64,000 bases of DNA from an uncultured Gammaproteobacteria bacterium (GTDB lineage: Bacteria; Patescibacteriota; Microgenomatia; Daviesbacterales; UBA10151). Shown piece by piece: positions 8,012-50,910 of this stretch. The stretch is from assembly GCA_964394855.1 (NCBI GenBank), contig CAYMZD010000004.1, positions 8,316 to 72,315 on the forward strand. Direction: 5' to 3'. Position 1 is the first letter of the stretch. The number at the start of each line of letters is the position of its first letter. Made by a program: the position numbers and the translations under genes. The notes beneath the pieces are model-generated. The model saw only the letters and a list, made by a program, of their open reading frames with translations, was not told the DNA's origin and made no database searches.

Positions 8012-8941
8012 ATGAGAAAGTCTGGGGTTGAAAAATTAATTATTGTTGGTTCTGGGCCGGCTGGGCTAACAGCAGCTATTTATGCAGCCAGAGGGAATTT
8101 AAATCCAGTGGTTATTACTGGAAGGGAAGCTGGCGGGCAATTAATGTTAACTACAGATGTGGATGATTTTCCCGGATTTGAAAGTGGCATCCAGGGACCG
8201 GAATTGATGGCTAAAATGCGCAAACAAGCTAAAAGGTTTAGCGTCAGATTTATAGATGAAGATGTTGTATCTGTAAATTTAAAAACTCAGCCTTTTGTGA
8301 TTAAAACTGAAAGCATGATTCTTAATTCTAACAGCTTGATTCTCGCTACAGGGGCTTCAGCTATGTGGTTGGGACTTTCTTCAGAGAAGCGCCTAATCGG
8401 TCATGGAGTATCAGCCTGTGCTATCTGTGATGCTCCTTTTTTCCAAGATAAAAAGGTAATTGTGGTGGGAGGAGGGGATACCGCTATGAGGGAAGCCAAT
8501 CACTTATCCAAGTTTTGTCAGTCAGTGGCTGTTGTTCATCGCCGCGGGGAACTGCGGGCCCAAGCTGCGCTGCAGCAGTTAGTTAAATCCAAAAAGAATG
8601 TAAATTTTATCTGGAATACGGTTGTGGAAGAAGTGTTGGGACAGGAAAAAGTGACAGGAGTGAGGTTAAAAAATACTCAAGATGGGAGGATGGAAGAATT
8701 AGCAGTTGATGGAGTGTTTGTGGCCATTGGACATCGGCCCAACACCGACTTTTTAAAAGGGCAACTGCCATTGGATGAAAAAGGATATGTGGTGGTAGAA
8801 AACGAAACCCATACTAAAGTGCCTGGTGTCTTTGTGGCCGGGGATGTGGCAGATTATCATTACCGCCAAGCAGCCACAGCCGCTGGCATGGGTTGTAAAG
8901 CATCCTTTGACGTTGAAGAATATTTGGAAAATTTAAAATAG
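8012..8941 (+). CDS. trxB: Thioredoxin-disulfide reductase
   Basis: FAD site GSGPAGLTAA, redox centre CAIC, NADPH site GGGDTA. Confidence 0.9.
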   Translation: MRKSGVEKLIIVGSGPAGLTAAIYAARGNLNPVVITGREAGGQLMLTTDVDDFPGFESGIQGPELMAKMRKQAKRFSVRFIDEDVVSVNLKTQPFVIKTESMILNSNSLILATGASAMWLGLSSEKRLIGHGVSACAICDAPFFQDKKVIVVGGGDTAMREANHLSKFCQSVAVVHRRGELRAQAALQQLVKSKKNVNFIWNTVVEEVLGQEKVTGVRLKNTQDGRMEELAVDGVFVAIGHRPNTDFLKGQLPLDEKGYVVVENETHTKVPGVFVAGDVADYHYRQAATAAGMGCKASFDVEEYLENLK

Positions 8942-8958
8942 ATGATATAATTGGCTCT

Positions 8959-9405
8959 ATGAAGTCATTATTATCTCAATTCATCAAATTGCTTCCCTCA
9001 AAACCAGTTTTTGCCCATTGTGATATTCCCTGCGGGATTTATGATCCCAAGCCGGCCCAGCTGGCTGCTCAAACAGTTTTAAAAATGGTTAATTTGATGA
9101 GTGAACTGCAACCCACCACTAGTGAACCGCCGTTTGAGGAAAGAAAGAAGATCATTTCTCAAATTTCCAGATTAACCAGAGTCAAGGAAGATCATGCTGA
9201 AGCGTGCAAAAGAGAAGTGTTAATTTTGTGGACAGATTATTTTAAAAGTGAGCATTTGGAAAAATTCCCGGATTTACATGATTTGATTTGGAAAACCTGT
9301 AAACTTTGTTCTGATAATAAAAGAGCCGTGGATGAGGCTAAAGCCCAAGAATTAGTTGAGGCTGTAGATAAAATAGCAGAGGTTTTTAATCAAACTAAAA
9401 AGTGA
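8959..9405 (+). CDS. sodN: Nickel superoxide dismutase precursor
   Basis: An 18-aa propeptide is followed by the Ni-hook HCDIPCGIYDP; TGATATAAT box 7 nt upstream of the ATG. Confidence 0.85.
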   Translation: MKSLLSQFIKLLPSKPVFAHCDIPCGIYDPKPAQLAAQTVLKMVNLMSELQPTTSEPPFEERKKIISQISRLTRVKEDHAEACKREVLILWTDYFKSEHLEKFPDLHDLIWKTCKLCSDNKRAVDEAKAQELVEAVDKIAEVFNQTKK

Positions 9406-9698
9406 AATTTCCCATTTCCAAATATAAAGTTTATGGCAGCTCCATGAACCCTACTTTAAAAGAGGGTCAGGAGGTTATAACTTTTAACTGGGGTAAACCA
9501 AAAGTGGGTGATATGGTGGTGATAAAAAAGGATGGCATAGAAATGGTTAAGCGCATACAAATGTCCTCCGACCCGCTGCGCGAGGCGAGTCGTGGTACAT
9601 TTGTACAAGGAGATAACAAGAAAGAAAGCACAGATTCCAGGCATTTTGGGCCGGTGGATAAATCTCAAATTGTGGGTAAGGTAGTTAAGTGGTATTAA
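9402..9698 (+). CDS. sodX: S26 signal-peptidase-like NiSOD maturation protease
   Basis: Motifs SSMNPTL, VKRI and GDNKKESTDSRHFGPV; the gene overlaps the sodN stop. Confidence 0.75.
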   Translation: MKFPISKYKVYGSSMNPTLKEGQEVITFNWGKPKVGDMVVIKKDGIEMVKRIQMSSDPLREASRGTFVQGDNKKESTDSRHFGPVDKSQIVGKVVKWY

Positions 9699-9740
9699 AC
9701 TTAAGTTGTGGTGGAGAGTAATTTCTTCTATACTGATGTT

Positions 9741-10058
9741 ATGGAAACTGCTGCCCAACAGGATAGACAAACAGCCCAAGTAATTGCCAGAAACTTAAAT
9801 AAATTGGGTGTAGGAGTCAGCGCAGAAGATATCACTCCCCAGACCGCTGCCACAGCGATACCCAGAACTAAAGAACTGGAGGAGGCTGGAGCAGAGATTT
9901 CCGGAGAAGATATCACCCACTTGGTGGGTGAAACAGTGGGGGAGATGACTACAGGAGCCAGTAAAGTAAGGGTGGCCCGCTCAAGCAGTTTTTGGGCTAA
10001 ACTTAAAGAAAGAGTTTTAAGAAAGAAAAAACCGGACGAGGAAGTTCTCATTAAATAA
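9741..10058 (+). CDS. Hypothetical protein
   Basis: ORF 9708-10058 with an internal ATG at 9741; the opposite-strand ORF is low complexity. Confidence 0.4.
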   Translation: METAAQQDRQTAQVIARNLNKLGVGVSAEDITPQTAATAIPRTKELEEAGAEISGEDITHLVGETVGEMTTGASKVRVARSSSFWAKLKERVLRKKKPDEEVLIK

Positions 10059-10062
10059 ATTT

Positions 10063-12408
10063 ATGGAGGTTACACCATCAAACGGGCCAGACATTATTGG
10101 TTTTGCCATCACTGCAGCCATGATTTTGATTTCTGTTATGGTTATTTTGGGGCTGATGGTGTATTTTTGGCGTTTTTTTGTGGGATGGGTAAAATTTAGA
10201 GAAAGAGAGAAAACATCTTTACAATTTGTGCTTTTGCAGATTATTGTTCCCCATGACAATGAAGTCAAAATTGATGCAGCAGAGCAACTTTTTGCCACCT
10301 TCGCCTCTATTAGAAAATCAACTGGTAAGCTTTTTGGTCGTTTCAAAATACAACCCCATTTATCTTTTGAGATTGTTGCTTTACATGAGTCAATTCGTTT
10401 CTATATTTCTTGCCATAGACAATATCAAGATTTAATAGAAAAGCAGATTCATGGAGCCTATCCTGATGCTGAAGTTAAAGAGTTACCAGAATATAATATT
10501 TTTTCAGAAGAGGGTAAAACAGCTTATGCCTCTTTGAGGCTTCGTAGTCAGGATTTTTTCCCCATAAAAACTTTTAGGGATTTACCAACAGATCCACTTT
10601 CTAGCATTACTTCTGCCTTGGCTAAAATGCAGCCAGGAGAGGGTGCAGCCATACAGATGATTATTTTTCCCAGCGATAACAACTGGAAAGAGATTGGTAA
10701 AAAGTGGCTGAAAAAAGAAAAAGACCCAGGAAAACCAGATAACCCCAAACCTCCCCCTGATGCCAAGCAGATTGAAGCGGTAGAAGGGAAAATGACCAGA
10801 CCTGGTTTTTATACCACTATCAGGATTGTGGTTTCTTCCACTTCCAGCGAATCTGCCAAAGCCCATCTGGCCAATATTCGCTCAGGCTTTGAACAGTTTA
10901 ATGGTCCATATAACGGTTTTAGTGGTGAAAAAGTCAAAAGCGAAAAGAGCTTTATGACTGATTTTATCTACCGTTATCAGCCCAGATTTAGCCAAGCTGC
11001 GGTTTTAACGCCAGATGAGCTGGCTTCTGTTTTCCATTTCCCCAACAAGCAGATTGAAACGCCCTATATCTCCTGGTTAACTTCTAAACGAGCTCCTGCC
11101 CCAGAAAAAATTCCCACAGAAGGACTTTATCTTGGACGCTCTCTTTTTCGCAGCATTGTCCGCCAGGTATATGTGGCAGAGGATGATAGAAGACGTCACA
11201 TGTATATCATTGGTCGAACCGGTATTGGTAAGTCAGAGCTTTTAAAAAGCTTGATGTTGCAAGATATTTTGGCAGGTAAAGGACTATGTTTTATTGACCC
11301 ACACGGTGATGCAGCAGAGGAATTATTAGAACTGATTCCTCCACAGCGAGCAGAAGATGTGATCTATTTTGACCCAGGAGATTTAGAAAGACCCATGGGG
11401 TTAAATATGATTGAAGCCTATACTGAAGAGCAAAAGCATTTTGTGGTAGCTTCCATTATTGGTTTAATGTATAAACTTTTTGATCCCAATAAAACTGGTA
11501 TTATCGGTCCTCGTTTTGAGCATGGTGTTCGGAATGCCATGTTAACAGCCATGAGTAAACCCGGTGCCACCTTTGTGGAGGTGATGAGAATCATGACTGA
11601 TTCCAGCTTTGTGCAAGAGATATTGCCCTTGGTAGTTGATCCAGTGGTACGCCGCTATTGGACAGATCAGATTGCCCAAACTACTGACTTTCACAAGTCT
11701 GAAGTTTTGGATTATACTGTTTCCAAATTTGGTCGTTTTGTCACCAATAAAATGATGAGAAATATTATTGGACAATCGCAAAGTTCATTTGATCTTAGAA
11801 AAGTGATGGATGAAGGAAAAATCTTAATCATGAATTTATCTAAGGGAAAAATTGGTGAGGAAAATTCCAACTTTTTAGGGCTGATCCTGGTACCTAAAAT
11901 TTTGGCTGCTGCCATGTCCCGCTCTGATATACCCATGGAGCAGCGGAGAGATTTTTATCTTTATGTGGATGAGTTTCAAAACTTTGCCACGGAAACTTTT
12001 GGCGATATCCTTTCCGAAGCTCGAAAATATCGTTTAAATTTAATTGTGGCTAATCAGTTTATTGGTCAAATTGGAGAGGAATTAAAAAATGCTGTTTTTG
12101 GTAATGTGGGAACCTTAATTGCCTTTAGGGTGGGAGTCACTGATGCTAACTATTTGCAGCATGAGTTTTCACCTACTTTTTCGGAAAACGATTTGGTTAA
12201 TGTAGAAGCTTATCATGCCTATATCAAGACCATTGTTCATGGAGAGCCAGTTTCACCATTTTCTTTGGATACCACTAAAGATATGACCAAATGGAAAAGT
12301 TTGCTAAACCCCCAAATTGCTCAAGCTGTCAAGGAGCTATCTCGTCTTAAATATGGTCGGGATGCGCAAACTATTGAAGCTGACATTGCCCAGCGGGCCA
12401 GATTGTAA
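10063..12408 (+). CDS. Membrane-anchored P-loop NTPase of the type IV secretion / conjugal coupling type (TraG/VirD4/VirB4-like)
   Basis: N-terminal TM helix; Walker A IIGRTGIGKSELL; Walker B-like LYVDEFQNFAT; size 781 aa. Confidence 0.55.
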   Translation: MEVTPSNGPDIIGFAITAAMILISVMVILGLMVYFWRFFVGWVKFREREKTSLQFVLLQIIVPHDNEVKIDAAEQLFATFASIRKSTGKLFGRFKIQPHLSFEIVALHESIRFYISCHRQYQDLIEKQIHGAYPDAEVKELPEYNIFSEEGKTAYASLRLRSQDFFPIKTFRDLPTDPLSSITSALAKMQPGEGAAIQMIIFPSDNNWKEIGKKWLKKEKDPGKPDNPKPPPDAKQIEAVEGKMTRPGFYTTIRIVVSSTSSESAKAHLANIRSGFEQFNGPYNGFSGEKVKSEKSFMTDFIYRYQPRFSQAAVLTPDELASVFHFPNKQIETPYISWLTSKRAPAPEKIPTEGLYLGRSLFRSIVRQVYVAEDDRRRHMYIIGRTGIGKSELLKSLMLQDILAGKGLCFIDPHGDAAEELLELIPPQRAEDVIYFDPGDLERPMGLNMIEAYTEEQKHFVVASIIGLMYKLFDPNKTGIIGPRFEHGVRNAMLTAMSKPGATFVEVMRIMTDSSFVQEILPLVVDPVVRRYWTDQIAQTTDFHKSEVLDYTVSKFGRFVTNKMMRNIIGQSQSSFDLRKVMDEGKILIMNLSKGKIGEENSNFLGLILVPKILAAAMSRSDIPMEQRRDFYLYVDEFQNFATETFGDILSEARKYRLNLIVANQFIGQIGEELKNAVFGNVGTLIAFRVGVTDANYLQHEFSPTFSENDLVNVEAYHAYIKTIVHGEPVSPFSLDTTKDMTKWKSLLNPQIAQAVKELSRLKYGRDAQTIEADIAQRARL

Positions 12409-12422
12409 TATAATTCACTCGC

Positions 12423-12493
12423 AGGCCCGTAGCTTAGTGGTAAAGCGGGTGTCTTATACACACTTGATGAGGGTTCGATTCCTTCCGGGCCTA
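12423..12493 (+). tRNA. tRNA with anticodon UAU (Ile, AUA-reading)
   Basis: A manual cloverleaf gives acceptor AGGCCCG/CGGGCCT, D-stem GCTT/AAGC, anticodon stem GGTGT/ACACT, loop CTTATAC, T-arm GAGGG-TTCGATT-CCTTC and A73. CCA is not encoded. Confidence 0.55.
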
Positions 12494-12578
12494 CCCTTCA
12501 ACAAGCTCAGGGTAAACTGAAAGGGGGTGATGAGTTCTGAATAAGCAAATAGGAAAAGTAGTACACTATTATGATAAA

Positions 12579-12785
12579 TTGGGTGTGGCCATTGTGGATT
12601 TGGACAATGGGAGTTTAAAGGTGGGGGATAGTGTCAAGTTTAAACACGGAGAAGATGAATTTACCCAAAATGTAGAATCTCTGCAAATTGAACATGAAGC
12701 AGTGGATTCAGTTAAAAAGGGAGACTCTTTTGGTTTAAAAGTTTCACAACCCACCAAGCCGGGAACTTTAGTTTATATGTCTTAA
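12579..12785 (+). CDS. Small hypothetical beta-rich protein (TTG start; reading frame is open from ~12534)
   Basis: ORF directly downstream of the tRNA; sequence ...KVGDSVKFKHGEDEF... Confidence 0.35.
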   Translation: MGVAIVDLDNGSLKVGDSVKFKHGEDEFTQNVESLQIEHEAVDSVKKGDSFGLKVSQPTKPGTLVYMS

Positions 12786-13645
12786 AGTTCTTCCAGTTGG
12801 ACCTTGGGCCCATTGGTTTGGCCTTGAATAAATTGTAAGTATTTTTCCGTGGTGGTTAATCTTTTATGTCCAGCCAGCTTGGCCACAGTCACTAAAGACA
12901 TGCCACTTTCTAGCTGGGTTGTTACCCAAGTATGACGCAAGTCATTAACTTTAGCTTGCTTGATGCCAGCAACTTTAAAATATCTATCAATGGCAGTTCT
13001 AATATTTCTGATAAGTAAGGGTTTGCCTGTTTTAGTGATAAACAGAGTATGAGAGGGTGATTTGGGCCTTATTCCTAAATATTTTTGTACAGCCTCGGCG
13101 CCAGGTTTAGTCAGAGGAATAGTTCGCTCCACAGTGCCTTCCGCTGTTGGTACATGTAAGTTTAAATTTTGTAAATCGATATCCTCTACTCGTAAGGCTG
13201 CCAACTCGCCAATTCTCACTCCTGTTTGCAAAAGGAGCTCAATAACGGCAAAAATTCGAATATCTCCTCTGGCAGCATCTCGCAGGGCCCTATATTCTAG
13301 TTTAGATAAAATACGAGGGGGTTTGTTTTCAAACTTGGGATGCTCCAAGGCTGTGGCTGGATCTTCAGTGATAAAATTAGATATTTTTAAGAATTTAAAA
13401 AAAGTTTTGGTGGAGTTGGTTTTTCTGGAAATTGATTTGGCAGTGTAGTTTTCTTTGGTCAGACTTTCCATAAAGGCTTGTAAATCTTCCAAAAGCACAT
13501 CAAAGGTCTGTTCTCGTCCCAGCTTTTTTAAGAAGTTAACCAGTTGCTCAATATCCTTGCCATAAGCTAAAATAGTAGCATTGGCACGGTTTTTGCCTTT
13601 GAGGTGGCCAATAAATTGTTGATGGGCATCTGTTAAGTTAATCAT
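12782..13645 (-). CDS. Tyrosine recombinase, XerC/XerD-like
   Basis: Catalytic region RHTWVTTQLESGMSLVTVAKLAGHKRLTTTEKYLQF carries the R-H-R-Y residues. Confidence 0.85.
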   Translation of the reverse strand: MINLTDAHQQFIGHLKGKNRANATILAYGKDIEQLVNFLKKLGREQTFDVLLEDLQAFMESLTKENYTAKSISRKTNSTKTFFKFLKISNFITEDPATALEHPKFENKPPRILSKLEYRALRDAARGDIRIFAVIELLLQTGVRIGELAALRVEDIDLQNLNLHVPTAEGTVERTIPLTKPGAEAVQKYLGIRPKSPSHTLFITKTGKPLLIRNIRTAIDRYFKVAGIKQAKVNDLRHTWVTTQLESGMSLVTVAKLAGHKRLTTTEKYLQFIQGQTNGPKVQLEEL

Positions 13646-13700
13646 GATATCTAGCTGATATTGTAAACTTATAGGGTGCTTTTGTCAAGAGAGTTTTAAA

Positions 13701-14054
13701 ATGGGTAAGAAGATAGTGTTAATTTTAATTGGTGCTTTAACAATAATTATTGCCTACAATCTGATTGGGCAAATTTTATCTACTGTTCACTCTGGGGATA
13801 AACTGTCTCAAGCCATGGATAGGTTGCACAAACTGGAAATTAAAAATAAGGAGCTCAAAAAAAAGCTGGAGGGAGTTAAATCACCGCAGTTTTTAGAACA
13901 GCAGGCCAGAGATAAGCTGGGTTTGGTTAAAGAAGGGGAAGTGCTGGTGATTATTCCTCAGGAAAAAATTGATCAGGTGTTAGGTTTAAGTAAAAAGGTG
14001 GAAGAAGTGAAACTGCCCAATCCTCTGGGCTGGTGGAAGTTGTTTTTTAAATGA
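13701..14054 (+). CDS. FtsB/DivIC-like septum formation initiator
   Basis: N-terminal TM helix followed by a coiled coil. Confidence 0.55.
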   Translation: MGKKIVLILIGALTIIIAYNLIGQILSTVHSGDKLSQAMDRLHKLEIKNKELKKKLEGVKSPQFLEQQARDKLGLVKEGEVLVIIPQEKIDQVLGLSKKVEEVKLPNPLGWWKLFFK

Positions 14055-14055
14055 T

Positions 14056-14766
14056 TTAGGAGCTTGTTTTACAGGCCAGTATAAATACCGAATAATCGTC
14101 ACCAATTATTGAATCATCGTCAATAGGAGGCGGGAGTTGCCTGAATTGAAATCCTGCCTTATCCAGCATATCTTTTAGTTGAACACCAGTATAAAATTTA
14201 AGTGGCTGATGATGGTTTTCATAAATAAGTTCACCATCTTTTAACCACTGTTGTTCATGCAGGTAGCGGAGGTTTTCTGGTAGCTTTAACCATGTTCTAC
14301 TACGATAAATCAAAACCCCCCCATTTTTAGTAGGGTTCTGATATTCTGCCACTCTAGCTTGAAGCTTTCCATTGTGGGAGTGGCTTTGGATTAATTTATC
14401 CCCATCAGTCACATCAAATAGCAGCTTACCTCCTGGTTTTAGCACTCTTTTAATCTCGGATAGTAATCTATCTATAGATGGGGGGTCCATGGAACTGTCA
14501 AACATTGAATGGAGTAATAAAACAAAGTCAAAACTTTGTCCAAAAGGAAGTTTAAACCAACTCCCTCGCACAAATGAGATGTCTCTGGCCATGGTCAGAT
14601 CTGGTGGGGAAATATCCATACCAACTACGTTTTGAAAACCACGCCGGGTTAAATCTAAGCAGTGTAAACCAGGACCACAACCTAAATCTAAGACCCTATG
14701 ATTGGTTTGTAAGCCATTTGAGATGGCAAGATCTACTTCAGCAATGTCTTGTTCCTCTGGTAACAT
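14056..14766 (-). CDS. Class I SAM-dependent methyltransferase
   Basis: Motif I VLDLGCGPGLHCLDL. Confidence 0.75.
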   Translation of the reverse strand: MLPEEQDIAEVDLAISNGLQTNHRVLDLGCGPGLHCLDLTRRGFQNVVGMDISPPDLTMARDISFVRGSWFKLPFGQSFDFVLLLHSMFDSSMDPPSIDRLLSEIKRVLKPGGKLLFDVTDGDKLIQSHSHNGKLQARVAEYQNPTKNGGVLIYRSRTWLKLPENLRYLHEQQWLKDGELIYENHHQPLKFYTGVQLKDMLDKAGFQFRQLPPPIDDDSIIGDDYSVFILACKTSS

Positions 14767-14887
14767 TTGGCAGAAAGATTAACAGAAGTTTCCATAAAAA
14801 GCAAATAAAGGGAGTGGGATGATGCCTGCCCTGAGCTTGGTGAAGGGCCTGCCCTGAAACTATTTAGATGCTTATTCAGTTTGGCCA

Positions 14888-15136
14888 TCAGTCTACCTTC
14901 AACCTTAAAATTCTAATTTTCTTTTCTCTGCTCCATCCCTTTATCTGTTTTTCTCTTTTTAAAGCTTCTGATCGAGTTGGTAATTGTTCTTGATAAACTA
15001 ACTTAATTGGTTTATGTGATTTCGTATAATGCCCACCCTTTCCATTCTTGTGATCTAAAAAACGCTGGTCTACGTTATTGGAATATCCAGTATATAAACT
15101 TCCATCTTCACACAGTAGAATGTACACAAACCACAT
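14888..15136 (-). CDS. GIY-YIG nuclease domain protein
   Basis: Motif VYILLCEDGSLYTGYSNN...R...H. Confidence 0.8.
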   Translation of the reverse strand: MWFVYILLCEDGSLYTGYSNNVDQRFLDHKNGKGGHYTKSHKPIKLVYQEQLPTRSEALKREKQIKGWSREKKIRILRLKVD

Positions 15137-15289
15137 GATGATATTTTAGCAGAGAGTAAATATTCGAGTCCTTCGACTCTGGTTCGACTACGCTCACCAT
15201 CGCTCAGGGCACTTCGACTCTATTTGCCATCAAAAAACTCGCTCCATTCATTCAGTGCCTGCACTGAGCGAGCGAAGCGAGTCGAAGTG
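15137..15289. other. Structured or repetitive spacer with mutually exclusive inverted repeats
   Basis: cacttcgactc (~15211) pairs with gagtcgaagtg (~15279); cgctcagggcac (~15201) pairs with gtgcctgcactgagcg (~15254) in a crossing arrangement; a gagtc-cttc-gactc hairpin lies at ~15176. Confidence 0.3.
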
Positions 15290-15361
15290 TTGCGGGGGCG
15301 GGAATCGAACCCGCTGCCTCAAGATTATGAGCCTTGTGTGCAGCCATTACACTTCCCCGCG
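15290..15361 (-). tRNA. tRNA(CAU), initiator-like (C1xA72 mismatch)
   Basis: Read as the reverse complement: acceptor CGCGGGG/CCCCGCA, anticodon stem CAAGG/TCTTG, loop CTCATAA, T-arm GCGGG-TTCGATT-CCCGC. Confidence 0.6.
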
Positions 15362-15441
15362 ATATTTAAAAGAACACTTGTATTTTAAACTTTTACCCTT
15401 AATATGTCAATGTAAGTAGGATATGTTAAAATTGACCGTAA

Positions 15442-15512
15442 GGCAGTGTAGTTTAACGGTAAAACAGTGCCCTCATAAAGCACGAACGGAGGTCCGACTC
15501 CTCCCATTGCCA
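15442..15512 (+). tRNA. tRNA(CAU), elongator Met or lysidine-type Ile2
   Basis: Acceptor GGCAGTG/CATTGCC with G1-C72, loop CTCATAA, T-loop TCCGACT (C at position 55, unusual). Confidence 0.55.
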
Positions 15513-15543
15513 CACTTGTGTTATGGTTTAATATGAGGCTAAA

Positions 15544-16212
15544 ATGGAAGAAGAAATGCTTAATTCAAAATTTCAAATTCAACGCCTATCTGATATCCCC
15601 GAAGCTGATATCCCAAAGACCTTAGAAGAAGTGGTAAAAGTGGAAAAAGAGGCCTGGCCCGAAGAAATACAAGCTCCTTTAGAAAAATTTCAGGCCAGAG
15701 CGGAAGTTTTTCCTCAAGGGTTTTTATTAATTTCTCTACCTGATCTAGGTTTAGTTGGAGTTTCAACGGCTGAAATCATCAATTATGACCCACTTCATCC
15801 ACCGATTTCCTGGGAAGAGACTACGGATAACGGGTGGATTAGAAGTACTCATAATCCAGAGGGGAATGCACTCTATCTTATTTCTGTGGGGGCGAGTCCA
15901 CGCTCTGCTGGCAGAGGTGTTGGTACAAGACTGGTTCAAGAACAGCTTGATTTAGCCAGAAGATTAAACCTAGACTATCTTGTTTTAGGTTCACGCATCC
16001 CTAAATATCATGAATATCACCTTCGGCATCCTGAAATGACCATAGATCAATATTTATTGTTAACTAGATCTGGCGGGGAAGTTTTAGATCCAGAGATTCG
16101 TTTTTATACGCGTTGTGGCTTAAAAGTGATTAGGGTGGTGCCAGATTATATGGAAGATGATCCAGAAAGTGAGAATTATGGAGCGGTGATGGTTTGGGAA
16201 AATCGCACATAA
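15544..16212 (+). CDS. GNAT-like acetyltransferase
   Basis: Acetyl-CoA site RSAGRGVGTRLV matches the GNAT R/QxxGxG/A motif. Confidence 0.5.
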   Translation: MEEEMLNSKFQIQRLSDIPEADIPKTLEEVVKVEKEAWPEEIQAPLEKFQARAEVFPQGFLLISLPDLGLVGVSTAEIINYDPLHPPISWEETTDNGWIRSTHNPEGNALYLISVGASPRSAGRGVGTRLVQEQLDLARRLNLDYLVLGSRIPKYHEYHLRHPEMTIDQYLLLTRSGGEVLDPEIRFYTRCGLKVIRVVPDYMEDDPESENYGAVMVWENRT

Positions 16213-16258
16213 CTTGCAATTTTGTGGTATAATGATTTAATCCCTAAGGAAAGCTCCT

Positions 16259-16543
16259 GTGGGGGTATTTTTTTGGCCCGACAAAGGCAAGGAAAAATAT
16301 ATGAGAGATAGAGTAGAAATATACGAAGAGGCTATATTACAAGCTACCTTAATTGAAGGGGGGAAAGAAAAAGATAGATACCCTCTTAAGGTAGTTGGTA
16401 TTAATGGTCGAAAGGCCATTGTGGTTGAGGCGGATTCAGATGGGCAACAAATTCCAGGAAGAGCCCTTGAGCAAGCACCTTTAGACGAGCTTGAAAAGGG
16501 TAGATTCGGTGTGTTGCAGATTTCCAATCATAGACCGATTTGA
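16259..16543 (+). CDS. Hypothetical protein
   Basis: The plus-strand ORF is preferred over the low-complexity minus-strand ORF; an internal ATG at 16301 has an SD. Confidence 0.3.
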   Translation: MGVFFWPDKGKEKYMRDRVEIYEEAILQATLIEGGKEKDRYPLKVVGINGRKAIVVEADSDGQQIPGRALEQAPLDELEKGRFGVLQISNHRPI

Positions 16544-16624
16544 CAACAACCCATCTTTATGTTAGCCTATAAATACATGGATAAACTGAATTTAAACATT
16601 TGTAGATGGTATCGTAAACATCCA

Positions 16625-16730
16625 GCCTGAAACAGGCGGTTTTTACGTGCCTTAAGTCCATGATTTAAGAAAAATTAAATAAAATTTTAAATAAAAAAGC
16701 ACAAGGAACCGCCAAGGAGGCGGTTTTTTT
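16625..16730 (+). promoter_or_regulatory. Two tandem terminator-like hairpins; the second carries an AAGGAGG SD in its loop just before the GTG/ATG of the next gene
   Basis: First hairpin gcctg-aaa-caggc followed by ggttttta (~16625-16645); second hairpin aaccgcc-AAGGAG-gcggtt followed by ttttttt (~16707-16730). Confidence 0.4.
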
Positions 16731-16742
16731 GTGGGAAAAAAT

Positions 16743-18134
16743 ATGGAAACAATAGAAAACAAAATTACAATTAGTACAGAGAATTTAGATGATCAAGAAG
16801 CAGATAAGAGGATAACTGCTATTAGAGGAGTGGTGCATCAATCTGGCTTAGTAACAGACTCTAGACACGATTTTAGACTGACTCCGGATAGATTAGTTTT
16901 AAATTCAGAAGCAAGAAACCAATTTGAACAGATTGGAGAGTTAATATTGTCAAGTTTTTCTGCAACCAGAAGAGTGTTTCTGAGGGCTAAAAGAAGTGAA
17001 TTTCCTGAAGATTTAAACAGATTTGTGATCAGAGCTCTTGAAGCAGGAATGAGTAATGCTAATAAAAAGACCTTATCAGTAGAGATTGACCAATTGCCGC
17101 TTTTTTTCAGGGCTGATTGTATCCTGGCACAAGATGGTGGGGAATTAGCGATTAAGGCTACTGAAATAGAAGGCGAAAGATCCATTGCTTTTGGCTTTGC
17201 CAGCTTCATAGATCAAATCAATACGGCAGTAAATCAAGTGAGTATAGACCAACGATTGGGGGGTTTAGGAGTTGCAAGTGGAATAAAACAAGCGGTTGAA
17301 GAAAGTAACTTCCAAGGTAAGGGAATAGCTTTAATATTAGCGGAAGACCAGCTATTCTATTTACCTGAACAGGCGCTATTTGTTAATGAACTTAGAAGTC
17401 TAGGGATACCTGTAGAGTTAGTTAGAGAGAATGATTTTGAAATGAAACCTGGCAATCCTCCCATGGTGATTTTGCCTAGTGGAGAAGCAGCTAATGTGGC
17501 TGTAAGCCTCCCAAAGTTTAATCCTCAAAAATCAGGTCAACAATTTAGCCAAGAAAGATTAAGGATGGATTTTATTAGGGGGGCTTTTGATTTCCTTTTG
17601 CCTCCGTTCAAATTCTTTGGTACAAAATCTTCTATGGCTTTAATGCACCAGCCAATAATTCGAGACATTTTCTTTGAAGAGGGAATGAATGCAAAATTGG
17701 TAGATAAATTGATTCCGCCAACGAAAGCAATAGCCGGTCAGATTTCAGAAGTAGAACGATTACTTTTAGAAATGGGCATTCAAACAGACCCCCCAACCCT
17801 GCTTAAAGCCGTAGGTATGACTGCTGGAAGAGGCATGGCTATGCCAAATGATAGAGAAGGTATCCGAGAAATTTTGCGGATTGCCAAAGGATCGCCATTT
17901 GATTTTATAACACAACAATTTTTGGAAACAGTTGCACCGGAATTTAGAATTTTTGATTCGCAGAGTGGTGAGTTACGCAAAGAATTTCAGTTTATGAGGT
18001 TGGCAGCATTTTTTGCTAATATTAACGGGTGTTCAACTTTGCTTGGAGTGGAGGGGACTGGTTTACCCAATCCATTTGTCCACGGAAACCCTAATTGTAT
18101 TTTCTTTCCAGTAGTATTTAAGGAGGAAGTATGA
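16743..18134 (+). CDS. Hypothetical protein with an ATP-grasp-like signature in circularly permuted order
   Basis: The RADCILAQDGGELAIKATEIEGERS block resembles the ATP-grasp C-terminal R-D...G...E-N motif but sits N-terminally; there are no other recognisable motifs. Confidence 0.35.
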   Translation: METIENKITISTENLDDQEADKRITAIRGVVHQSGLVTDSRHDFRLTPDRLVLNSEARNQFEQIGELILSSFSATRRVFLRAKRSEFPEDLNRFVIRALEAGMSNANKKTLSVEIDQLPLFFRADCILAQDGGELAIKATEIEGERSIAFGFASFIDQINTAVNQVSIDQRLGGLGVASGIKQAVEESNFQGKGIALILAEDQLFYLPEQALFVNELRSLGIPVELVRENDFEMKPGNPPMVILPSGEAANVAVSLPKFNPQKSGQQFSQERLRMDFIRGAFDFLLPPFKFFGTKSSMALMHQPIIRDIFFEEGMNAKLVDKLIPPTKAIAGQISEVERLLLEMGIQTDPPTLLKAVGMTAGRGMAMPNDREGIREILRIAKGSPFDFITQQFLETVAPEFRIFDSQSGELRKEFQFMRLAAFFANINGCSTLLGVEGTGLPNPFVHGNPNCIFFPVVFKEEV

Positions 18135-18562
18135 AAGCTATAATATTTGATTTTAATAGAACCTTATTTGATCCTGAATCAGATAAACTGATTGATGGTT
18201 GTAAGGATGTATTGAGAGCATTATCTAAGGATAGGACATTAGTCCTTATAAGTAACGCTGCTGACTCAAGGGAAGATCTTATTCATAAACTTGGTATTGG
18301 GGATTTCTTTAAGAAGATAATACTTACCAAACAGAAGAATAAGAATGATTTTATTAGTATATGTCAATCACTATCTATTAGTCCAAGTGAGGTAATGGTA
18401 GTAGGAGATAGAGTAAAAGGGGAAATCTCTATAGGGAATAGTTTGGGTATGACTACGGTTCAGTTCCTAAATGGAATTTTTGCTAATGAACTGCCGAGTG
18501 ATGAGATGGAAAAGCCCAAAATCATTATTACAAATTTAAAGGAGTTATTAAAATATGGCTAA
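18131..18562 (+). CDS. HAD-superfamily hydrolase
   Basis: Motif I IIFDFNRTLFD and motif IV VVGDRVKGE. Confidence 0.7.
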   Translation: MKAIIFDFNRTLFDPESDKLIDGCKDVLRALSKDRTLVLISNAADSREDLIHKLGIGDFFKKIILTKQKNKNDFISICQSLSISPSEVMVVGDRVKGEISIGNSLGMTTVQFLNGIFANELPSDEMEKPKIIITNLKELLKYG

Positions 18563-18998
18563 GTTTGGTGAAATTAAGAAATTTTTAGAAGAAAATACTG
18601 TCCAGTTTACAGTAATAGAGCTGGCTAGTATTGCACGCTCCGTTGAAGATGTAATGAAGCTATCTAATGGCCAGGTTAAAAGTGAGGAAGTTATTAAGAC
18701 TTTAATTGTTAAAAAAGGTGGGGAGTTCCAAGGTTTAGTTCTAAGAGGCGATGACCGCTTAAAGAACAATTTTATAGATAGGTTTGCTACCAAGGATGAA
18801 GTATTGTCTATTGCTGGAGTGGAGTTTGGGGCAGTTTGCCCTGTACTTTTAGGAATACCTATTATAATTGATAAAAAAGTAATGAATTTAAAAAGAGTAA
18901 ACATGGGATCAGGGGATTTATTAAAAGGAATAGATTTAAATTTAGAAGATTTGCTAAAAGTATTACCAAACTCTACAATTGAGGTGATATCTTTATGA
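18555..18998 (+). CDS. YbaK/ProX-like aminoacyl-tRNA trans-editing domain protein
   Basis: Size and conserved K/G pattern (KTLIVKKGGEF...GAVCP); it overlaps the neighbouring genes. Confidence 0.5.
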   Translation: MAKFGEIKKFLEENTVQFTVIELASIARSVEDVMKLSNGQVKSEEVIKTLIVKKGGEFQGLVLRGDDRLKNNFIDRFATKDEVLSIAGVEFGAVCPVLLGIPIIIDKKVMNLKRVNMGSGDLLKGIDLNLEDLLKVLPNSTIEVISL

Positions 18999-19990
18999 AA
19001 AGAATTTTAACTGGGGATAGGCCCACCTCTGATAGTTTTCATTTGGGAAACTATGTGGGGTCCTTGAAAAATAGGGTCAAGCTGCAGGATGAGTACGAGA
19101 CCTTTATTGAGGTAGTAGATCTTCATGCCTTAACAACTCATTTTGATAAAACTGCTGATTTGGAAAAAAATATCCGTGGTTTGATGCTCGGGTATTTGTC
19201 TGTGGGGTTGGATCCTAAAAAGGTTACATTTATTCTGCAGTCCAAAGTACCTGAAGTTTTGGAACTGGCATATTTTCTGGGAACTTTGACCTCCAGAGCA
19301 GTCTTGGAGCGCCAGCCGGCTTTAAAAGAAAAACTTGATCAGGGAGAACAAGATACCTTTGCTTTGTTTCAATATCCGGTTTTAATGGCGGCTGATATTC
19401 TGCTTCCTAAAGCCAATCTAGTGCCTGTAGGTAAAGACCAAAAAGCTCATGTGGAATATGCCAGAGACATTGCCATGAAATTTAATAGCACATATGGTGA
19501 AGTTTTTCCTATACCAGAACCATTGATAGGGGAAGTACCCACTCTTCCAGGTACAGACGGCAGGGGGAAAATGAGCAAATCCTTAAATAATGCCATTTTT
19601 TTGACTGACTCTCCTGAAGAAGTAGAAAAAAAGGTCATGAATATGTATACCGATCCCAAAAGAATCCACCCTAACGATCCGGGAACAGTTGAAGGAAATC
19701 CGGTCTTTGTTTATCTGGATGCATTTGGCACAGAAGGTGATAAAGCTCAAATTGCCAAATTCAGAGAGCTTTACACAAAGGGCCAAGTGGGAGATATTGA
19801 GGTCAAAAAGTATCTGGTATCCGTTTTAAATAATTTTCTGGATCCCATCCGCCAGAGGAGAGAAAAGTACGAGAAAGACCCCGAGCTTGTCGAACGGATT
19901 TTGCGTGAAGGCACTGCCAAAGCCCGTCTTGAGGCCCAAAAAACTCTACAAGAAGTTAAATCTGCCATGAAACTCGATTACTTCCCATAA
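18995..19990 (+). CDS. trpS: Tryptophan--tRNA ligase
   Basis: Class I motifs FHLGNYVG (HIGH-like) and KMSKS. Confidence 0.9.
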   Translation: MKRILTGDRPTSDSFHLGNYVGSLKNRVKLQDEYETFIEVVDLHALTTHFDKTADLEKNIRGLMLGYLSVGLDPKKVTFILQSKVPEVLELAYFLGTLTSRAVLERQPALKEKLDQGEQDTFALFQYPVLMAADILLPKANLVPVGKDQKAHVEYARDIAMKFNSTYGEVFPIPEPLIGEVPTLPGTDGRGKMSKSLNNAIFLTDSPEEVEKKVMNMYTDPKRIHPNDPGTVEGNPVFVYLDAFGTEGDKAQIAKFRELYTKGQVGDIEVKKYLVSVLNNFLDPIRQRREKYEKDPELVERILREGTAKARLEAQKTLQEVKSAMKLDYFP

Positions 19991-20017
19991 TCCTTATTCT
20001 CTGGTATAATTTCCATC

Positions 20018-21859
20018 ATGGCCAATGGAAAAAAGAAATTAAATCACAAACGTTTGTGGTCTATTACCAAAGGGGTGGCTATTTATGTTTTAATAGCCCT
20101 GGCTTCTTTAATCTTCTTTTATTCATTTGCAGGTCCACCTCAACCCCAAAACCAAGTGCCAATCTCCCAAATAATTCAGGATATTAAAGATAAAAAGATA
20201 GACAAGATCATCCTGGAGGGGGATAAAATTCAGGCCAAATTAAAAGATGCTGATGAGAAGATAGTTTCCCGGAAAGAAGAAGGGGAATCAATTTATAAAA
20301 TTCTGGAAAGTTCTGGAGTTGATCCCAAGGAAGTGACCATTGAGGTCAAAGATATTTCCATGCAGCAAGCTTGGGTAAATATCTTAGGAGCTTTTTTACC
20401 AGTGATTTTAATGGTGGTACTTTTTTTCTTCATTTTCCGCCAAGCCAGAGAAGGAGCCCAGGGCATTTTTTCCTTTGCCCAGAGCCGTGCCAAGCTTTTT
20501 ACTAAAGATGCCCCTCAAATTAAATTTGGCGATGTGGCAGGAGCAGAGGAGGCCAAAAAAGAGCTTTCAGAAGTGGTAGATTTTCTAAAAAGTCCGCAAA
20601 AATATAAAGACATCGGGGCCAGAATTCCCAAGGGAGTACTTTTAGTTGGTCCTCCGGGTACAGGTAAAACCCTCTTGTCAAGAGCGGTGGCCGGCGAGGC
20701 CAATGTACCATTTTTCTCCATTGCCGGTTCAGAATTTATGGAAATGCTAGTGGGAGTGGGAGCAGCCAGAGTTCGCGATATGTTTTCCCAAGCCAAAAAA
20801 AGCGCTCCGGCCATTATTTTCATTGACGAGATTGAATCAATCGGCAGGATGCGTGGTTTTGGCATTTCCGGCGGGCATGATGAAAGAGAACAGACCTTAA
20901 ATCAAATCTTGGTGGAGATGGATGGTTTCGCTCCCAATGATCATGTGATTGTCGTCGGTGCCACTAATCGCCCTGATTTATTGGATCCGGCCCTAATTCG
21001 ACCAGGCAGATTTGATAGACGGGTGATTTTAAATATGCCTGATATAGAAGAGCGAAAGGCCATTATTGAATTGCACATGAAGGGTAAACCATTTACTAGG
21101 GAAGTTGATGTTGAAAGATTGGCCAGGCGAACTGTGGGTTTTTCCGGAGCGGATTTGGCCAATATGTTAAATGAGGCTGCCATTTTGGCTGCGCGCGAGG
21201 CTAAAAAAGCGATAGACCCCAGAGATCTGGAAGAGGCGGCCACCAAAGTTAAACTGGGGCCGCAGCGAAAAAGAATGCAAACGGAAAATGATAGGAAGCT
21301 TTCCGCCTATCATGAGGCTGGTCATGCCATAGTGGGACATCACTTACCTTTAGTTGATCCGGTCCATCGCATTTCCATAGTATCGCGCGGCATGACCGGG
21401 GGACACACCATGTTTCCCCCCACTGAAGATCGCTCTAATGAGACAAAATCGCGCCTCACACAGCAAATTACCACTGCCTTGGGAGGAAGAGCAGCAGAAG
21501 AGATGGTTTTTAGTGATATTTCAACCGGAGCGGCCAGTGATATTGAGATAGCCACCGGTATTGCCAGGGAAATGGTGGCGGAATATGGCATGTCCAGTTT
21601 AGGACCAATTAATATCAAACCTCGTTCTATGTTTGGTCTTTGGCCTACCATGGGGGAAGAAGGTGGCGGGGTTTCCCAGACCATGCAAACAAAAATTGAT
21701 ATGGAAGTTAAAAAAATTATTGACTCTTGTTACAAACAAGCTCAAGAGATTTTGCATAAAAATAAGGCCAAACTTGATAAAGTGGCCAAGGCCCTTTTGG
21801 GAAAAGAAACTTTAGATACGGATGAATTTGAAAAACTTATTGGGAAGAAGAAAACTTGA
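20018..21859 (+). CDS. ftsH: ATP-dependent zinc metalloprotease FtsH
   Basis: N-terminal TM region, Walker A GPPGTGKT, SRH region, zinc motif HEAGHA. TGGTATAAT box 7 nt upstream of the ATG. Confidence 0.95.
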   Translation: MANGKKKLNHKRLWSITKGVAIYVLIALASLIFFYSFAGPPQPQNQVPISQIIQDIKDKKIDKIILEGDKIQAKLKDADEKIVSRKEEGESIYKILESSGVDPKEVTIEVKDISMQQAWVNILGAFLPVILMVVLFFFIFRQAREGAQGIFSFAQSRAKLFTKDAPQIKFGDVAGAEEAKKELSEVVDFLKSPQKYKDIGARIPKGVLLVGPPGTGKTLLSRAVAGEANVPFFSIAGSEFMEMLVGVGAARVRDMFSQAKKSAPAIIFIDEIESIGRMRGFGISGGHDEREQTLNQILVEMDGFAPNDHVIVVGATNRPDLLDPALIRPGRFDRRVILNMPDIEERKAIIELHMKGKPFTREVDVERLARRTVGFSGADLANMLNEAAILAAREAKKAIDPRDLEEAATKVKLGPQRKRMQTENDRKLSAYHEAGHAIVGHHLPLVDPVHRISIVSRGMTGGHTMFPPTEDRSNETKSRLTQQITTALGGRAAEEMVFSDISTGAASDIEIATGIAREMVAEYGMSSLGPINIKPRSMFGLWPTMGEEGGGVSQTMQTKIDMEVKKIIDSCYKQAQEILHKNKAKLDKVAKALLGKETLDTDEFEKLIGKKKT

Positions 21860-21893
21860 CTTTTGAGAAGATCTAGCAGTAAGATAATCTTGC

Positions 21894-22664
21894 ATGCGCG
21901 TAACTTGGATTTTGGCAATTTTAGCTCTCTCTGCAATCTTTCTTTCAGGCTGTAATACTGTTTTTGCCGCGTCAAACGCCCAAGAAGATTTAACCTCTGG
22001 TTTAACCCTGGATGAAGCTGGGGCAGTGGAAATTGGTGAATCTTTAATTTATCCATCTTCACCTTTGTATTTTCTAAAAGGTATCAGAGAGCGGATTGAA
22101 CTAATGTTAAGTAGTAATAATAAAGCTAAGGCTCAAAGAGAGTTGGAGTTTGCTCAAAGGCGCCTTCGGGAAGTAAGAGCTTTAATCAAACACCAAAGGC
22201 AGGATTTAATTGACTCCACCCTAGAACGTTATAAAGCTTCATTAAACGAGGCCAGAAGTTTATCTGCCCCAGATTCTAGTCTGCAACTGCCAGTGGGGGA
22301 GGCTATTTCGCGGCATTTGGATGTGTTGCAAAGAGTCCATGACCAAGTGGGAAACCCCAGAGCTAAACAGGCCATCAGAGCAGCGCTAGAAAGGGGAATG
22401 GAGCATTTGCAAACCATGCAAAAGCGTTTGGATTTAGTGCAGCAACAAGAACTAATTCGCAAAACAGCTTTGCGCCAAGCTCTAGCTTGTAATTTGCTAG
22501 CTAGGGAAGCTTCCAATTCTGGATTAACTGATACAGACAGAGTTTATCTGACACAAAAAGTCAAAGATTGCCAGCAAAATATCAGAGAAAATCTAAAAGA
22601 TGAGCTGATGGAACTGCGGGATATGAAAAAACAACTCCGCCCTGCCACACAATCTGCCAAATAA
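21894..22664 (+). CDS. Secreted coiled-coil hypothetical protein
   Basis: Signal peptide with a lipobox-like LSGC; Q/R/L-rich helices. Confidence 0.45.
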   Translation: MRVTWILAILALSAIFLSGCNTVFAASNAQEDLTSGLTLDEAGAVEIGESLIYPSSPLYFLKGIRERIELMLSSNNKAKAQRELEFAQRRLREVRALIKHQRQDLIDSTLERYKASLNEARSLSAPDSSLQLPVGEAISRHLDVLQRVHDQVGNPRAKQAIRAALERGMEHLQTMQKRLDLVQQQELIRKTALRQALACNLLAREASNSGLTDTDRVYLTQKVKDCQQNIRENLKDELMELRDMKKQLRPATQSAK

Positions 22665-28617: not shown

Positions 28618-28893
28618 ATGATAATACCGACAGCTAAAAATACCAAAACCATTACAGATTTAAGGGAAAAAGCCCTGGAAATGCTAGAACAAACAAAAAA
28701 GGCGGGCCCCACCTTTATCTTGCATCGCAGTAAACCCACAGCCGTGATGTTGTCGATTGAGGAATATGCCAACATGATGGAGATGCTGGAAGATTATTTT
28801 GATGCTTTAAAGGCCGAAGAGCTAGAAGAAGATGGTGAGAAAGGCGGAATCGGTTTAGATACTTTAATAAAAAAATATAATCTTAGGGTCTAA
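28618..28893 (+). CDS. Phd/YefM-family antitoxin
   Basis: N-terminal sequence TITDLREKALEMLEQ...PTFILHRSKPTAVMLSIEEY. Confidence 0.75.
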   Translation: MIIPTAKNTKTITDLREKALEMLEQTKKAGPTFILHRSKPTAVMLSIEEYANMMEMLEDYFDALKAEELEEDGEKGGIGLDTLIKKYNLRV

Positions 28894-29153
28894 TGTACCA
28901 AATTACTATCTCATCAAAAGCAGAAAAGCATTTTGCCAGACTACCTAAAAACTTACAAGAAAAAATCGCCAAAAAATTAAAGCAACTTGAGGAAAACCCA
29001 CTTCAGCAAGGCTTGGATATTAAAAAGTTAGCAGGTACAGAAAAAAGTTATAGATTAAGAGCAGGGGAACTGCGGATACTTTACCAAATGAAGACCGGAT
29101 TAAAAACAATTTTAGTGGTAGACATTGATTTTAGAAGGACCTCCACCTATTAA
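28893..29153 (+). CDS. RelE/ParE-family toxin
   Basis: 86 aa; overlaps the antitoxin stop; C-terminal KSYRLRAGELRILYQM... Confidence 0.75.
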   Translation: MYQITISSKAEKHFARLPKNLQEKIAKKLKQLEENPLQQGLDIKKLAGTEKSYRLRAGELRILYQMKTGLKTILVVDIDFRRTSTY

Positions 29154-29180
29154 AGGTAAATTAAAAAGATTTCCCTGGTT

Positions 29181-29229
29181 GGCCGTGGAACTTACTTTTG
29201 CCCCAAATGCCAAAAATAATTGATATAAT
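29181..29229 (+). repeat. Direct repeat copy 2 (decayed duplicate of the fpg 3' end plus -10 box)
   Basis: ggccgtggaacttacttttgccccaaatgccaaaaataattgatataat matches 28037-28085 with mismatches only in the distal part. Confidence 0.8.
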
Positions 29230-47869: not shown

Positions 47870-48019
47870 TTTGAACACAGCAATTAAAGAAATTACTACT
47901 AATGAAGTAATACGAACTGAACCGGACCAGCTTCCTAAGGCAGAGATAATAAAAAGAAAAAGAGGAGCTAGCATGAGAAAGTATAGCTATTATCCAGATG
48001 GGGCAATAACACTTTACTA
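47870..48019 (+). CDS. Candidate 49-aa precursor-like peptide (MNTAIKEITTNEVIRTEPDQLPKAEIIKRKRGASMRKYSYYPDGAITLY)
   Basis: TTG start 6 nt after the strong SD AAGAGGAGGTGAGG. A nested ATG (MRKYSYYPDGAITLY) also has the SD AAGAGGAG. Located immediately upstream of the PqqD-like gene. Coordinates may be off by 1. Confidence 0.3.
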
Positions 48020-48058
48020 GGTTTAAAGTCTAAAACTCTGTGATTTTATCGAAAGTTT

Positions 48059-49928: not shown

Positions 49929-49962
49929 TGTTGGTATGTGATTATTTTGCTAAAATAATCAG

Positions 49963-50880: not shown

Positions 50881-50910
50881 ATCACTTCTTTCATATCAAC
50901 TTTATTAATA

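Follow-up and report, generated by a model that had tools for sequence, protein, structure and literature searches.

The tRNA-Ile(UAU) gene and its surroundings

The stretch of DNA analysed here, referred to as the window, comprises 64,000 nucleotides (nt) of contig CAYMZD010000004.1 (assembly GCA_964394855.1) from a metagenome-assembled genome of an uncultured member of the Daviesbacteria, a Microgenomates group within the Candidate Phyla Radiation (CPR, or Patescibacteria). The gene under study, at 12423-12493 on the plus strand, specifies positions 1-73 of a tRNA-Ile with the anticodon UAU. With a probability of about 0.8, we consider it to be a functional minor tRNA-Ile that reads AUA through this genome-encoded anticodon without lysidine, and a vertically inherited core gene of the Microgenomates. 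Read 5' to 3', the locus leads from TrxB, a nickel superoxide dismutase (Ni-SOD) with its S26 peptidase and a small hypothetical gene to an ATPase gene, whose stop codon lies 15 nt from the tRNA. Beyond the tRNA come an open reading frame (ORF) of 68 amino acids (aa), a minus-strand gene for an Xer-type recombinase, FtsB, genes for a methyltransferase and a GIY-YIG protein, and the tRNA-fMet and tRNA-Met genes; TrpRS, FtsH and PolA lie farther downstream.

ARAGORN calls five tRNAs in the window, among them tRNA-Ile(tat) at 12423-12495 on the plus strand. The Rfam model RF00005, with a gathering score of 29 bits, matches 12423-12493 over its full length (1-71) with 70.7 bits (E=2e-13), the top tRNA score of the window. 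The minimum-energy fold is a cloverleaf, with the acceptor stem AGGCCCG/CGGGCCU (A1-U72), U8, the D arm GCUU-AGUGGUA-AAGC, the anticodon arm GGUGU-CUUAUAC-ACACU (loop C32-U33-U34-A35-U36-A37-C38), a variable region of 4 nt and the T arm GAGGG-UUCGAUU-CCUUC; on a reading of the sequence, every base used in tertiary interactions is present. A preliminary description of this DNA had proposed a clean cloverleaf with a UAU anticodon in the loop CUUAUAC, and the tRNA-gene scan, Rfam and the fold all bear this out. The anticodon is unshifted, and a shifted loop or other anticodon register was ruled out by the concordance of ARAGORN, Rfam and the minimum-energy structures. The earlier proposal that the molecule decodes AUA is likewise supported. 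The discriminator base A73 is followed by CCC; the gene thus does not specify CCA, which would be added post-transcriptionally. A consensus scan also identified a putative sigma-70-like promoter at 12386-12414 (plus strand; TTGCCC-17 nt-TATAAT), which matches the consensus at 10 of 12 positions, extends across the ATPase stop codon and has its 3' end 9 nt 5' of the tRNA. The tRNA probably has its own promoter.

Conservation and covariation in Microgenomates

The ATPase can be used as a synteny anchor, and a scan of species-representative genomes with it yielded 80 orthologous loci. These come from Daviesbacteria, with ATPase identities of 75-79%, and from Levybacteria, Curtissbacteria, Beckwithbacteria, Gottesmanbacteria and other Microgenomates, with identities of 60-65%. 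In 72 of the 80 loci, representing at least five candidate phyla, ARAGORN places a tRNA-Ile(tat) just past the ATPase gene; five of the eight loci lacking it stop less than 300 nt from that gene. For covariation analysis, 64 distinct orthologous tRNAs were aligned, each cut at the discriminator base. Neither the loop CTTATA nor A73 varies among these sequences, stem positions are paired in 99.5% of cases, and compensatory changes on both sides are found in 19 of 21 stem pairs, spanning all four helices. The covariation score is 0.829; with shuffled partners it drops to 0.200, and with slid partners it does not exceed 0.152. Such a pattern is the mark of a functional tRNA under purifying selection and vertical inheritance, and it makes tRNA-Ile(UAU) a clade-wide trait, not the peculiarity of a single organism. 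A pseudogene or a chance cloverleaf could be suspected from the unencoded CCA and from a modest single-sequence folding z-score (-1.4), but the Rfam score of 70.7 bits (E=2e-13), the complete set of tertiary-interaction bases and the clade-wide covariation render such an explanation scarcely credible.

Use and meaning of the AUA codon

AUA is a common codon in this genome segment, accounting for 309 of 18,259 codons in 60 non-overlapping ORFs of the window, or 16.9 per 1000 and 23% of isoleucine codons. Alignments can reveal what the codon means. In the ATPase columns (79 orthologues) with ATT or ATC in at least 60%, ATA is the third commonest codon, at 6.5%, and ATG reaches 0.6%; in the Met-conserved columns ATA makes up 0.5%. 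At the ATA sites of FtsH, 96% of the aligned residues in homologues are I, V or L and 1.3% are M. Heavy use of AUA as isoleucine is thus what is observed, and these substitution patterns indicate that it is read as such. It could be supposed that AUA is not an isoleucine codon, that the tRNA carries a different amino acid or that it also reads AUG, given that an unmodified U34 is able to wobble-pair with G and that some CPR lineages have altered genetic codes. The tRNA-Ile(UAU) of Mycoplasma mobile does bind AUG on Escherichia coli ribosomes (PMC3575796). Against this, ATA swaps with ATT and ATC and occupies I, V or L positions, not Met positions, which leaves this reading very improbable. The identity set of E. 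coli IleRS comprises A73, C4-G69, U12-A23, A35, U36, A37 and C29-G41; the first six elements agree with the window tRNA and also speak against other charging, and C29-G41 is not found there, its place being taken by U29-A41.

Isoleucine identity and the CAU tRNAs

The acceptor stem provides a further means of telling isoleucine from methionine tRNAs. In the survey of Silva et al. (2006; PMC1635315), G3 or A3 with C70 or T70 never occurs in tRNA-Met or tRNA-fMet and marks tRNA-Ile(CAU); tRNA-Met and tRNA-fMet usually carry C3-G70, and tRNA-Ile(CAU) often has C4-G69 and C5-G68. By these discriminators the window tRNA-Ile(UAU), with G3-C70, C4-G69 and C5-G68, is of the isoleucine type. The orthologues conform to a large extent, with G3 or A3 in 61/64, C4-G69 in 51/64 and U12-A23 in 53/64.

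The preliminary description had also listed two CAU tRNAs, one with C1xA72 and one with G1-C72, as well as a tRNA-Ile(GAU), and had regarded the AUA-decoding strategy of the organism as unclear. ARAGORN and Rfam confirm all three genes, and the strategy has become clearer, with the CAU pair consisting of an initiator and a probable elongator tRNA-Met; both have C3-G70, and the acceptor-stem discriminators sort them as fMet and Met. The initiator tRNA-fMet(CAU) lies at 15289-15361 on the minus strand; with C1xA72 and A29-G30-G31/U39-C40-U41, it is compatible with a relaxed initiator consensus (PMC1635315). The second gene, at 15442-15513 on the plus strand, has G1-C72, C3-G70, A4-U69 and G5.U68, that is, the Met type and not the Ile2 type. 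In the related loci, 43 of 43 non-initiator CAU tRNAs form a single family that starts with GGCAG or GCCAG. All CAU tRNAs, the two in the window and the 63 in related loci, belong either to the initiator family or to the C3-G70 elongator family; neither the window nor the related loci (1.37 Mb) yielded a third CAU family or a tRNA-Ile2(CAU). The C3-G70 pair and the membership in a single family are the grounds on which the tRNA at 15442-15513 is read as a probable elongator tRNA-Met, not a tRNA-Ile2. Decoding of AUU and AUC falls to tRNA-Ile(GAU) at 62818-62892 (plus strand; ARAGORN, Rfam), 3' of the 16S rRNA gene.

Both CAU tRNAs have unusual features. The tRNA-fMet carries A8 for U8 and U11-A24, and its anticodon stem has merely the A29-G30-G31/U39-C40-U41 pairs; A11-U24 is present in 100% of tRNA-fMet genes, divergent exceptions aside (PMC1635315). 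This atypical sequence type recurs in most Daviesbacteria loci. The tRNA-Met has a C31.A39 mismatch and the T loop UCCGA, with C at position 55, where U or pseudouridine is normally universal. A T-loop variant GGTCCGA, or even GGGCGCG, is also seen in several Microgenomates tRNA-Ile(UAU) or tRNA-Met genes (loci L036, L049, L051, L054, L058, L071 and L074). A GNAT-family acetyltransferase gene (15544-16212, plus strand) lies 31 nt 3' of tRNA-Met and has a tblastn match in one of the 80 loci; a link to acetylation of C34 in tRNA-Met would be pure speculation.

Relationship to tRNA-Ile2(CAU)

G3-C70, C4-G69, C5-G68 and A73 are typical of tRNA-Ile2(CAU), and tRNA-Ile(UAU) is therefore most likely a member of that lineage, with U instead of C at position 34. 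Metagenomes were scanned for the Daviesbacteria-type acceptor and T arm with a pyrimidine at position 34, which gave at least 120 matching stretches, of which 80 were examined as loci. Position 34 is T in 39 of them and C in 41. Every one of the roughly 20 contigs with the Microgenomates gene order has T34. The C34 versions are found on unrelated contigs, whose GC content is either 27-33% or greater than 60%; they resemble ordinary tRNA-Ile2(CAU) with, as it happens, the same AGGCCCG acceptor stem. These data fit a shared origin of the UAU tRNA and tRNA-Ile2.

Copies of tRNA-Ile(UAU) with the same acceptor stem also occur beyond the Microgenomates, adjoining tRNA-Val(GAC) in mostly GC-rich contigs and in dense phage-like tRNA arrays (loci L097, L138, L152, L165, L167 and L168, with GC 0.47-0.65, and L099, L119, L132 and L159). 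Encoded UAU tRNAs seem commoner in metagenomes than the 'rare cases' of the literature would suggest.

TilS and the question of a second AUA decoder

Whether tRNA-Ile(UAU) acts alone depends on the presence of TilS, which converts C34 of tRNA-Ile2(CAU) to lysidine. TilS was not recovered when the window, the 1.37 Mb of related loci and the metagenome loci were scanned in all six frames for SGGxDS, the PP-loop signature; the sole genuine PP-loop match of these scans was an AsnB-like gene in one related locus (L068). Pfam tables for the window plus 8.5 kb of deposited contig upstream contain neither PF01171 nor IleRS, and a search of the loci for class-I motifs gave no IleRS in the window or the related loci. 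Gene order can be informative as well, the usual arrangement being tilS-hpt-ftsH. In the window the gene before ftsH is TrpRS, not tilS-hpt. A 427-aa gene at 38630-39913, in a tilS-like position, was considered as TilS and rejected, as it encodes a PHP/TIGR00375 (EndoQ-like) protein and not a PP-loop enzyme. This PHP-domain gene of the TIGR00375/MJ0043 family overlaps a generic phosphoribosyltransferase gene by 4 nt and is followed by pth (38630-41114), an arrangement that mimics tilS-hpt.

A broader view comes from Meheust et al. (2019; PMC6744442), whose Supplementary Data 1 records the TilS family in 123 of 2321 CPR genomes and in 866 of 1198 other bacteria. It is the only PF01171/K04075 family of the 921 widespread families and is flagged 'depleted', and the main text is silent on TilS. 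IleRS falls within a class-Ia synthetase family that is present in 2302 CPR genomes.

The most serious alternative is a redundant decoder, with tilS and tRNA-Ile2(CAU) elsewhere in the genome and the UAU tRNA as an auxiliary, as has been proposed for Lactobacillus casei and L. plantarum. Redundant AUA systems are documented (PMC3575796), and the TilS family does occur in those 123 CPR genomes. On the other hand, a redundant gene should often be lost, yet this one keeps the same locus in 72 of 75 adequately flanked loci under strong structural constraint; TilS is found in 5% of CPR genomes; no third CAU family turned up in the related loci; and the tilS-hpt-ftsH arrangement is absent, with TrpRS before ftsH and the PHP/TIGR00375 gene before the phosphoribosyltransferase. 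Redundancy is accordingly unlikely, if less so than the other alternatives weighed here.

Several points weigh against the reading of tRNA-Ile(UAU) as the lysidine-free AUA decoder of its clade. The negatives for tilS and tRNA-Ile2(CAU) span about 72.5 kb of a genome assumed to be some 0.8-1 Mb, by analogy with complete relatives from Daviesbacteria (CP066688.1, 820 kb) and Beckwithbacteria (CP011210.1, 1.05 Mb). The published TilS count refers to CPR as a whole, not to Daviesbacteria, and since the family is detected in just 72% of non-CPR genomes, detection must miss some TilS genes. L. casei and L. plantarum possess a TAT tRNA plus tilS (PMC3575796). C3-G70 is compatible with a rare tRNA-Ile2, and a further CAU gene could lie elsewhere in the genome. 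Three loci (L044, L062 and L076) have no tRNA-Ile(UAU) at this site despite adequate flanks. Finally, the charging, expression, modification and IleRS fit of the tRNA are inferred from sequence.

A model for lysidine-independent decoding

In the preferred reading, that of a functional, vertically inherited tRNA-Ile(UAU), U34 would pair directly with the third base of AUA. Because T is encoded at position 34, conversion by TilS would not be required. The gene lies in a conserved block of DUF8128 ATPase, tRNA, xer and ftsB, and is probably transcribed from its own promoter. It would be the sole AUA decoder if, as appears to be the case, tilS and tRNA-Ile2(CAU) are absent. The IleRS of the organism would have to accept U34, a capacity that goes with Arg or Lys at the position of W905 in the E. 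coli enzyme or with a eukaryote-type IleRS; A37 would be expected to bear t6A, and misreading of AUG might be prevented by modification of U34, by a property of the ribosome or by competition from tRNA-Met. On the present evidence, AUA decoding in this Daviesbacterium, and in Microgenomates as a whole, very probably falls to tRNA-Ile(UAU) as a dedicated tRNA, which probably performs it alone. A wider proposition, that lysidine-independent AUA decoding is the rule in Microgenomates and perhaps in most CPR, with the UAU tRNA as sole reader and TilS absent, is held less firmly, as somewhat the likelier case. Were it true, IleRS and the decoding centre, or modification of U34, would have adapted to separate AUA from AUG. 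The CPR state may be either a secondary loss or a retained pre-lysidine state, the latter in line with a last universal common ancestor (LUCA) scenario (Taniguchi et al.).

Neighbouring genes and the question of integration

The preliminary description had correctly placed the tRNA between an ATPase gene and an Xer-like recombinase gene, and had seen in this a classical integration hotspot. The ATPase (10063-12408, plus strand, 781 aa) is a DUF8128 or TraD/VirD4-like P-loop protein, recognized by weak Pfam and NCBIfam matches to TraG/TrwB/TraD and by a precomputed Pfam assignment to PF26449. The recombinase gene (12782-13645, minus strand) encodes a protein with Pfam domains PF00589 and PF02899 and NCBIfam matches to XerA, XerC and XerD at E=1e-44 to 1e-48. 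It is followed by the FtsB/DivIC septum-formation gene (13701-14054, plus strand; PF04977). An Xer orthologue, with 43-79% identity, occupies the same position 3' of the tRNA in 63 of the 80 loci, and FtsB comes next after it in 47.

One alternative is that the tRNA is the attachment site, or the cargo, of an element served by the adjoining tyrosine recombinase. A tRNA gene beside a tyrosine recombinase is a classic integration site, a TraD/VirD4-like ATPase lies upstream, and TAT tRNAs occur within phage-like tRNA arrays in metagenomes. Some relatives also have 0.5-3 kb of additional DNA separating ATPase, tRNA and xer, and seven loci have the tRNA in inverted orientation. These points are outweighed by the ATPase-tRNA-xer-ftsB order, which is kept though the ATPases are merely 60-79% identical, by best family matches of the recombinase to XerA/C/D, and by flanks made up of housekeeping genes (TrxB, Ni-SOD, FtsB, TrpRS, FtsH and PolA). 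Moreover, no direct, att-like repeat of the tRNA 3' end was found within 9000-22000 of the window, and GC around the tRNA is 0.395-0.41, with no compositional break in a window of about 40% GC. Involvement of the tRNA in such an element is thus most improbable. The Xer gene is, to judge by its synteny, a conserved core gene and not a mobile-element integrase. The conserved Xer and FtsB synteny, the XerA/C/D matches and the missing 3'-end repeat leave the hotspot suggestion unsupported, and it is withdrawn for this window.

The locus is rearranged locally in some relatives, with gene content conserved. The tRNA and the ATPase gene point in opposite directions, the tRNA being inverted, in L019, L023, L029, L034, L035, L045 and L070, and 0.7-3 kb of additional DNA separates ATPase gene, tRNA and xer in L021, L037, L048, L063, L069 and L077. 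The 68-aa ORF between tRNA and xer (12579-12785, plus strand) shows a sub-cut-off match to PF03144 (EF-Tu domain 2; E=3.7e-5) and is unconserved, with a tblastn match in 4 of the 80 loci. Directly 5' of the ATPase, TrxB, the nickel superoxide dismutase and its maturation peptidase (8012-9698) form an oxidative-stress cluster that is present in about 30-36 of the 80 loci.

Comparison with known systems

Bacterial tRNA-Ile genes with a TAT anticodon have been described before, in nine species in 2013 (PMC3575796) and in 17 genomes in 2021 (PMC8450103). A 2026 preprint calls bacterial UAU tRNAs 'rare cases', a 2021 review likewise treats them as lost or rare, and TilS has been found in 98% of surveyed bacteria (PMC6063277). 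Metagenomes have yielded 371 distinct TAT tRNA genes, without lineage assignment (PMC3575796). An encoded tRNA-Ile(UAU) together with loss of tilS is known from Mycoplasma mobile, a few other Mycoplasma, Bifidobacterium and Neorickettsia (PMC3575796; PMC8450103). Our literature search of main texts returned no report tying CPR, Patescibacteria or Microgenomates to tilS, lysidine or UAU tRNAs. The kind of tRNA is thus already known; what is new, set against the searchable literature, is the lineage and the spread across a whole clade.

The closest counterpart is the tRNA-Ile2(UAU) of M. mobile, which also has an encoded TAT and reads AUA without lysidine in a small genome, and for which an origin from tRNA-Ile2(CAU), through replacement of C34 by T, has been proposed (PMC3575796). 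M. mobile is one species surrounded by relatives with tilS, whereas Microgenomates have the trait fixed throughout a clade of class rank. For M. mobile, the role of IleRS Arg865, an unmodified U34 and ribosome-based rejection of AUG have been shown experimentally. Bifidobacterium and Neorickettsia have lost tilS at the level of lineages and have a TAT tRNA as the replacement, as may be the case here; they use a horizontally acquired IleRS of eukaryotic or archaeal type, and they are unrelated to Microgenomates (PMC3575796; PMC8450103). L. casei and L. plantarum have a TAT tRNA too, but they have kept tilS, so that AUA decoding is redundant; here the indirect evidence points to absence of tilS.

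With the canonical pair of tRNA-Ile2(CAU) and TilS, the window tRNA shares AUA decoding and the acceptor signature G3-C70, C4-G69, C5-G68 and A73, and some metagenomic tRNA-Ile2(CAU) have an identical AGGCCCG acceptor stem. It differs in its encoded T34 and in that no TilS is found in the sequence covered. Parallels exist outside bacteria as well. In both Nanoarchaeum equitans and Korarchaeum cryptofilum, which have small genomes and are partly symbiotic, an encoded UAU replaces the C34-modification system (PMC8450103), although these are archaea and the system lost there is that of agmatidine and TiaS. Eukaryotic cytoplasmic tRNA-Ile(UAU) also reads AUA with an encoded UAU, but its U34 and U36 are pseudouridylated (PMC11912914) and its genes contain introns.

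Reviews and recent papers hold lysidine to be the means by which nearly all bacteria read AUA, and treat encoded UAU tRNAs as rare oddities. Here, dozens of species-level genomes from several candidate phyla share the UAU tRNA as a conserved core gene under strong constraint, and a published but overlooked table had already recorded the scarcity of TilS across CPR. The TilS family TIGR02432 is a GTDB marker. If confirmed by whole-genome searches, our reading would mean that AUA decoding departs from the textbook in a large part of bacterial diversity; marker-gene sets would be affected, tRNA annotation rules would need adjustment, and it would no longer be safe to regard TilS as a universal antibacterial target. 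It would also supply many natural IleRS/tRNA pairs in which to study acceptance of U34 and avoidance of AUG misreading.

Further observations on the window

The 16S rRNA gene (60973-62460) is followed by tRNA-Cys(GCA) at 62729-62803 (ARAGORN, Rfam), tRNA-Ile(GAU) and a phosphoglycerate kinase gene (60973-63890 overall). No 23S rRNA gene was found in the remaining 1.1 kb of the window, so the rRNA operon looks unlinked; tRNA-Cys occupies the usual place of tRNA-Ala in the 16S spacer. A low-GC island at 48000-56000 (31-34%, compared with about 40% elsewhere) contains a GT4 glycosyltransferase, a NUDIX protein, a short-chain dehydrogenase, a polyprenyl synthase and several ORFs without a family, and may be a horizontally acquired surface-polysaccharide cluster. 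A PhdYeFM antitoxin/ParE toxin pair (28618-29219) lies just 3' of a gene for a Fpg/MutM-type DNA glycosylase, and a 19-aa fragment after this pair matches the zf-FPG_IleRS zinc finger.

The protein search with FtsH returned at least 120 homologues, all of Daviesbacteria type among the matches listed. Some of them (P0023, P0050 and P0117) are 1039-1065 aa long, with intein/LAGLIDADG domains (PF14528, PF14890) in the AAA region; the FtsH of the window has 613 aa and no intein. By exact protein identity, genes around the tRNA were also placed on a near-identical deposited contig of a different assembly record, JACQIZ010000003.1 (GCA_016198205.1, 283 kb), whose proteins are labelled Candidatus Daviesbacteria bacterium. 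This contig ends at 61589 inside the 16S rRNA gene. Over its final 320 nt (61267-61589) it shows 12 differences from the window sequence, which runs 2.4 kb further.

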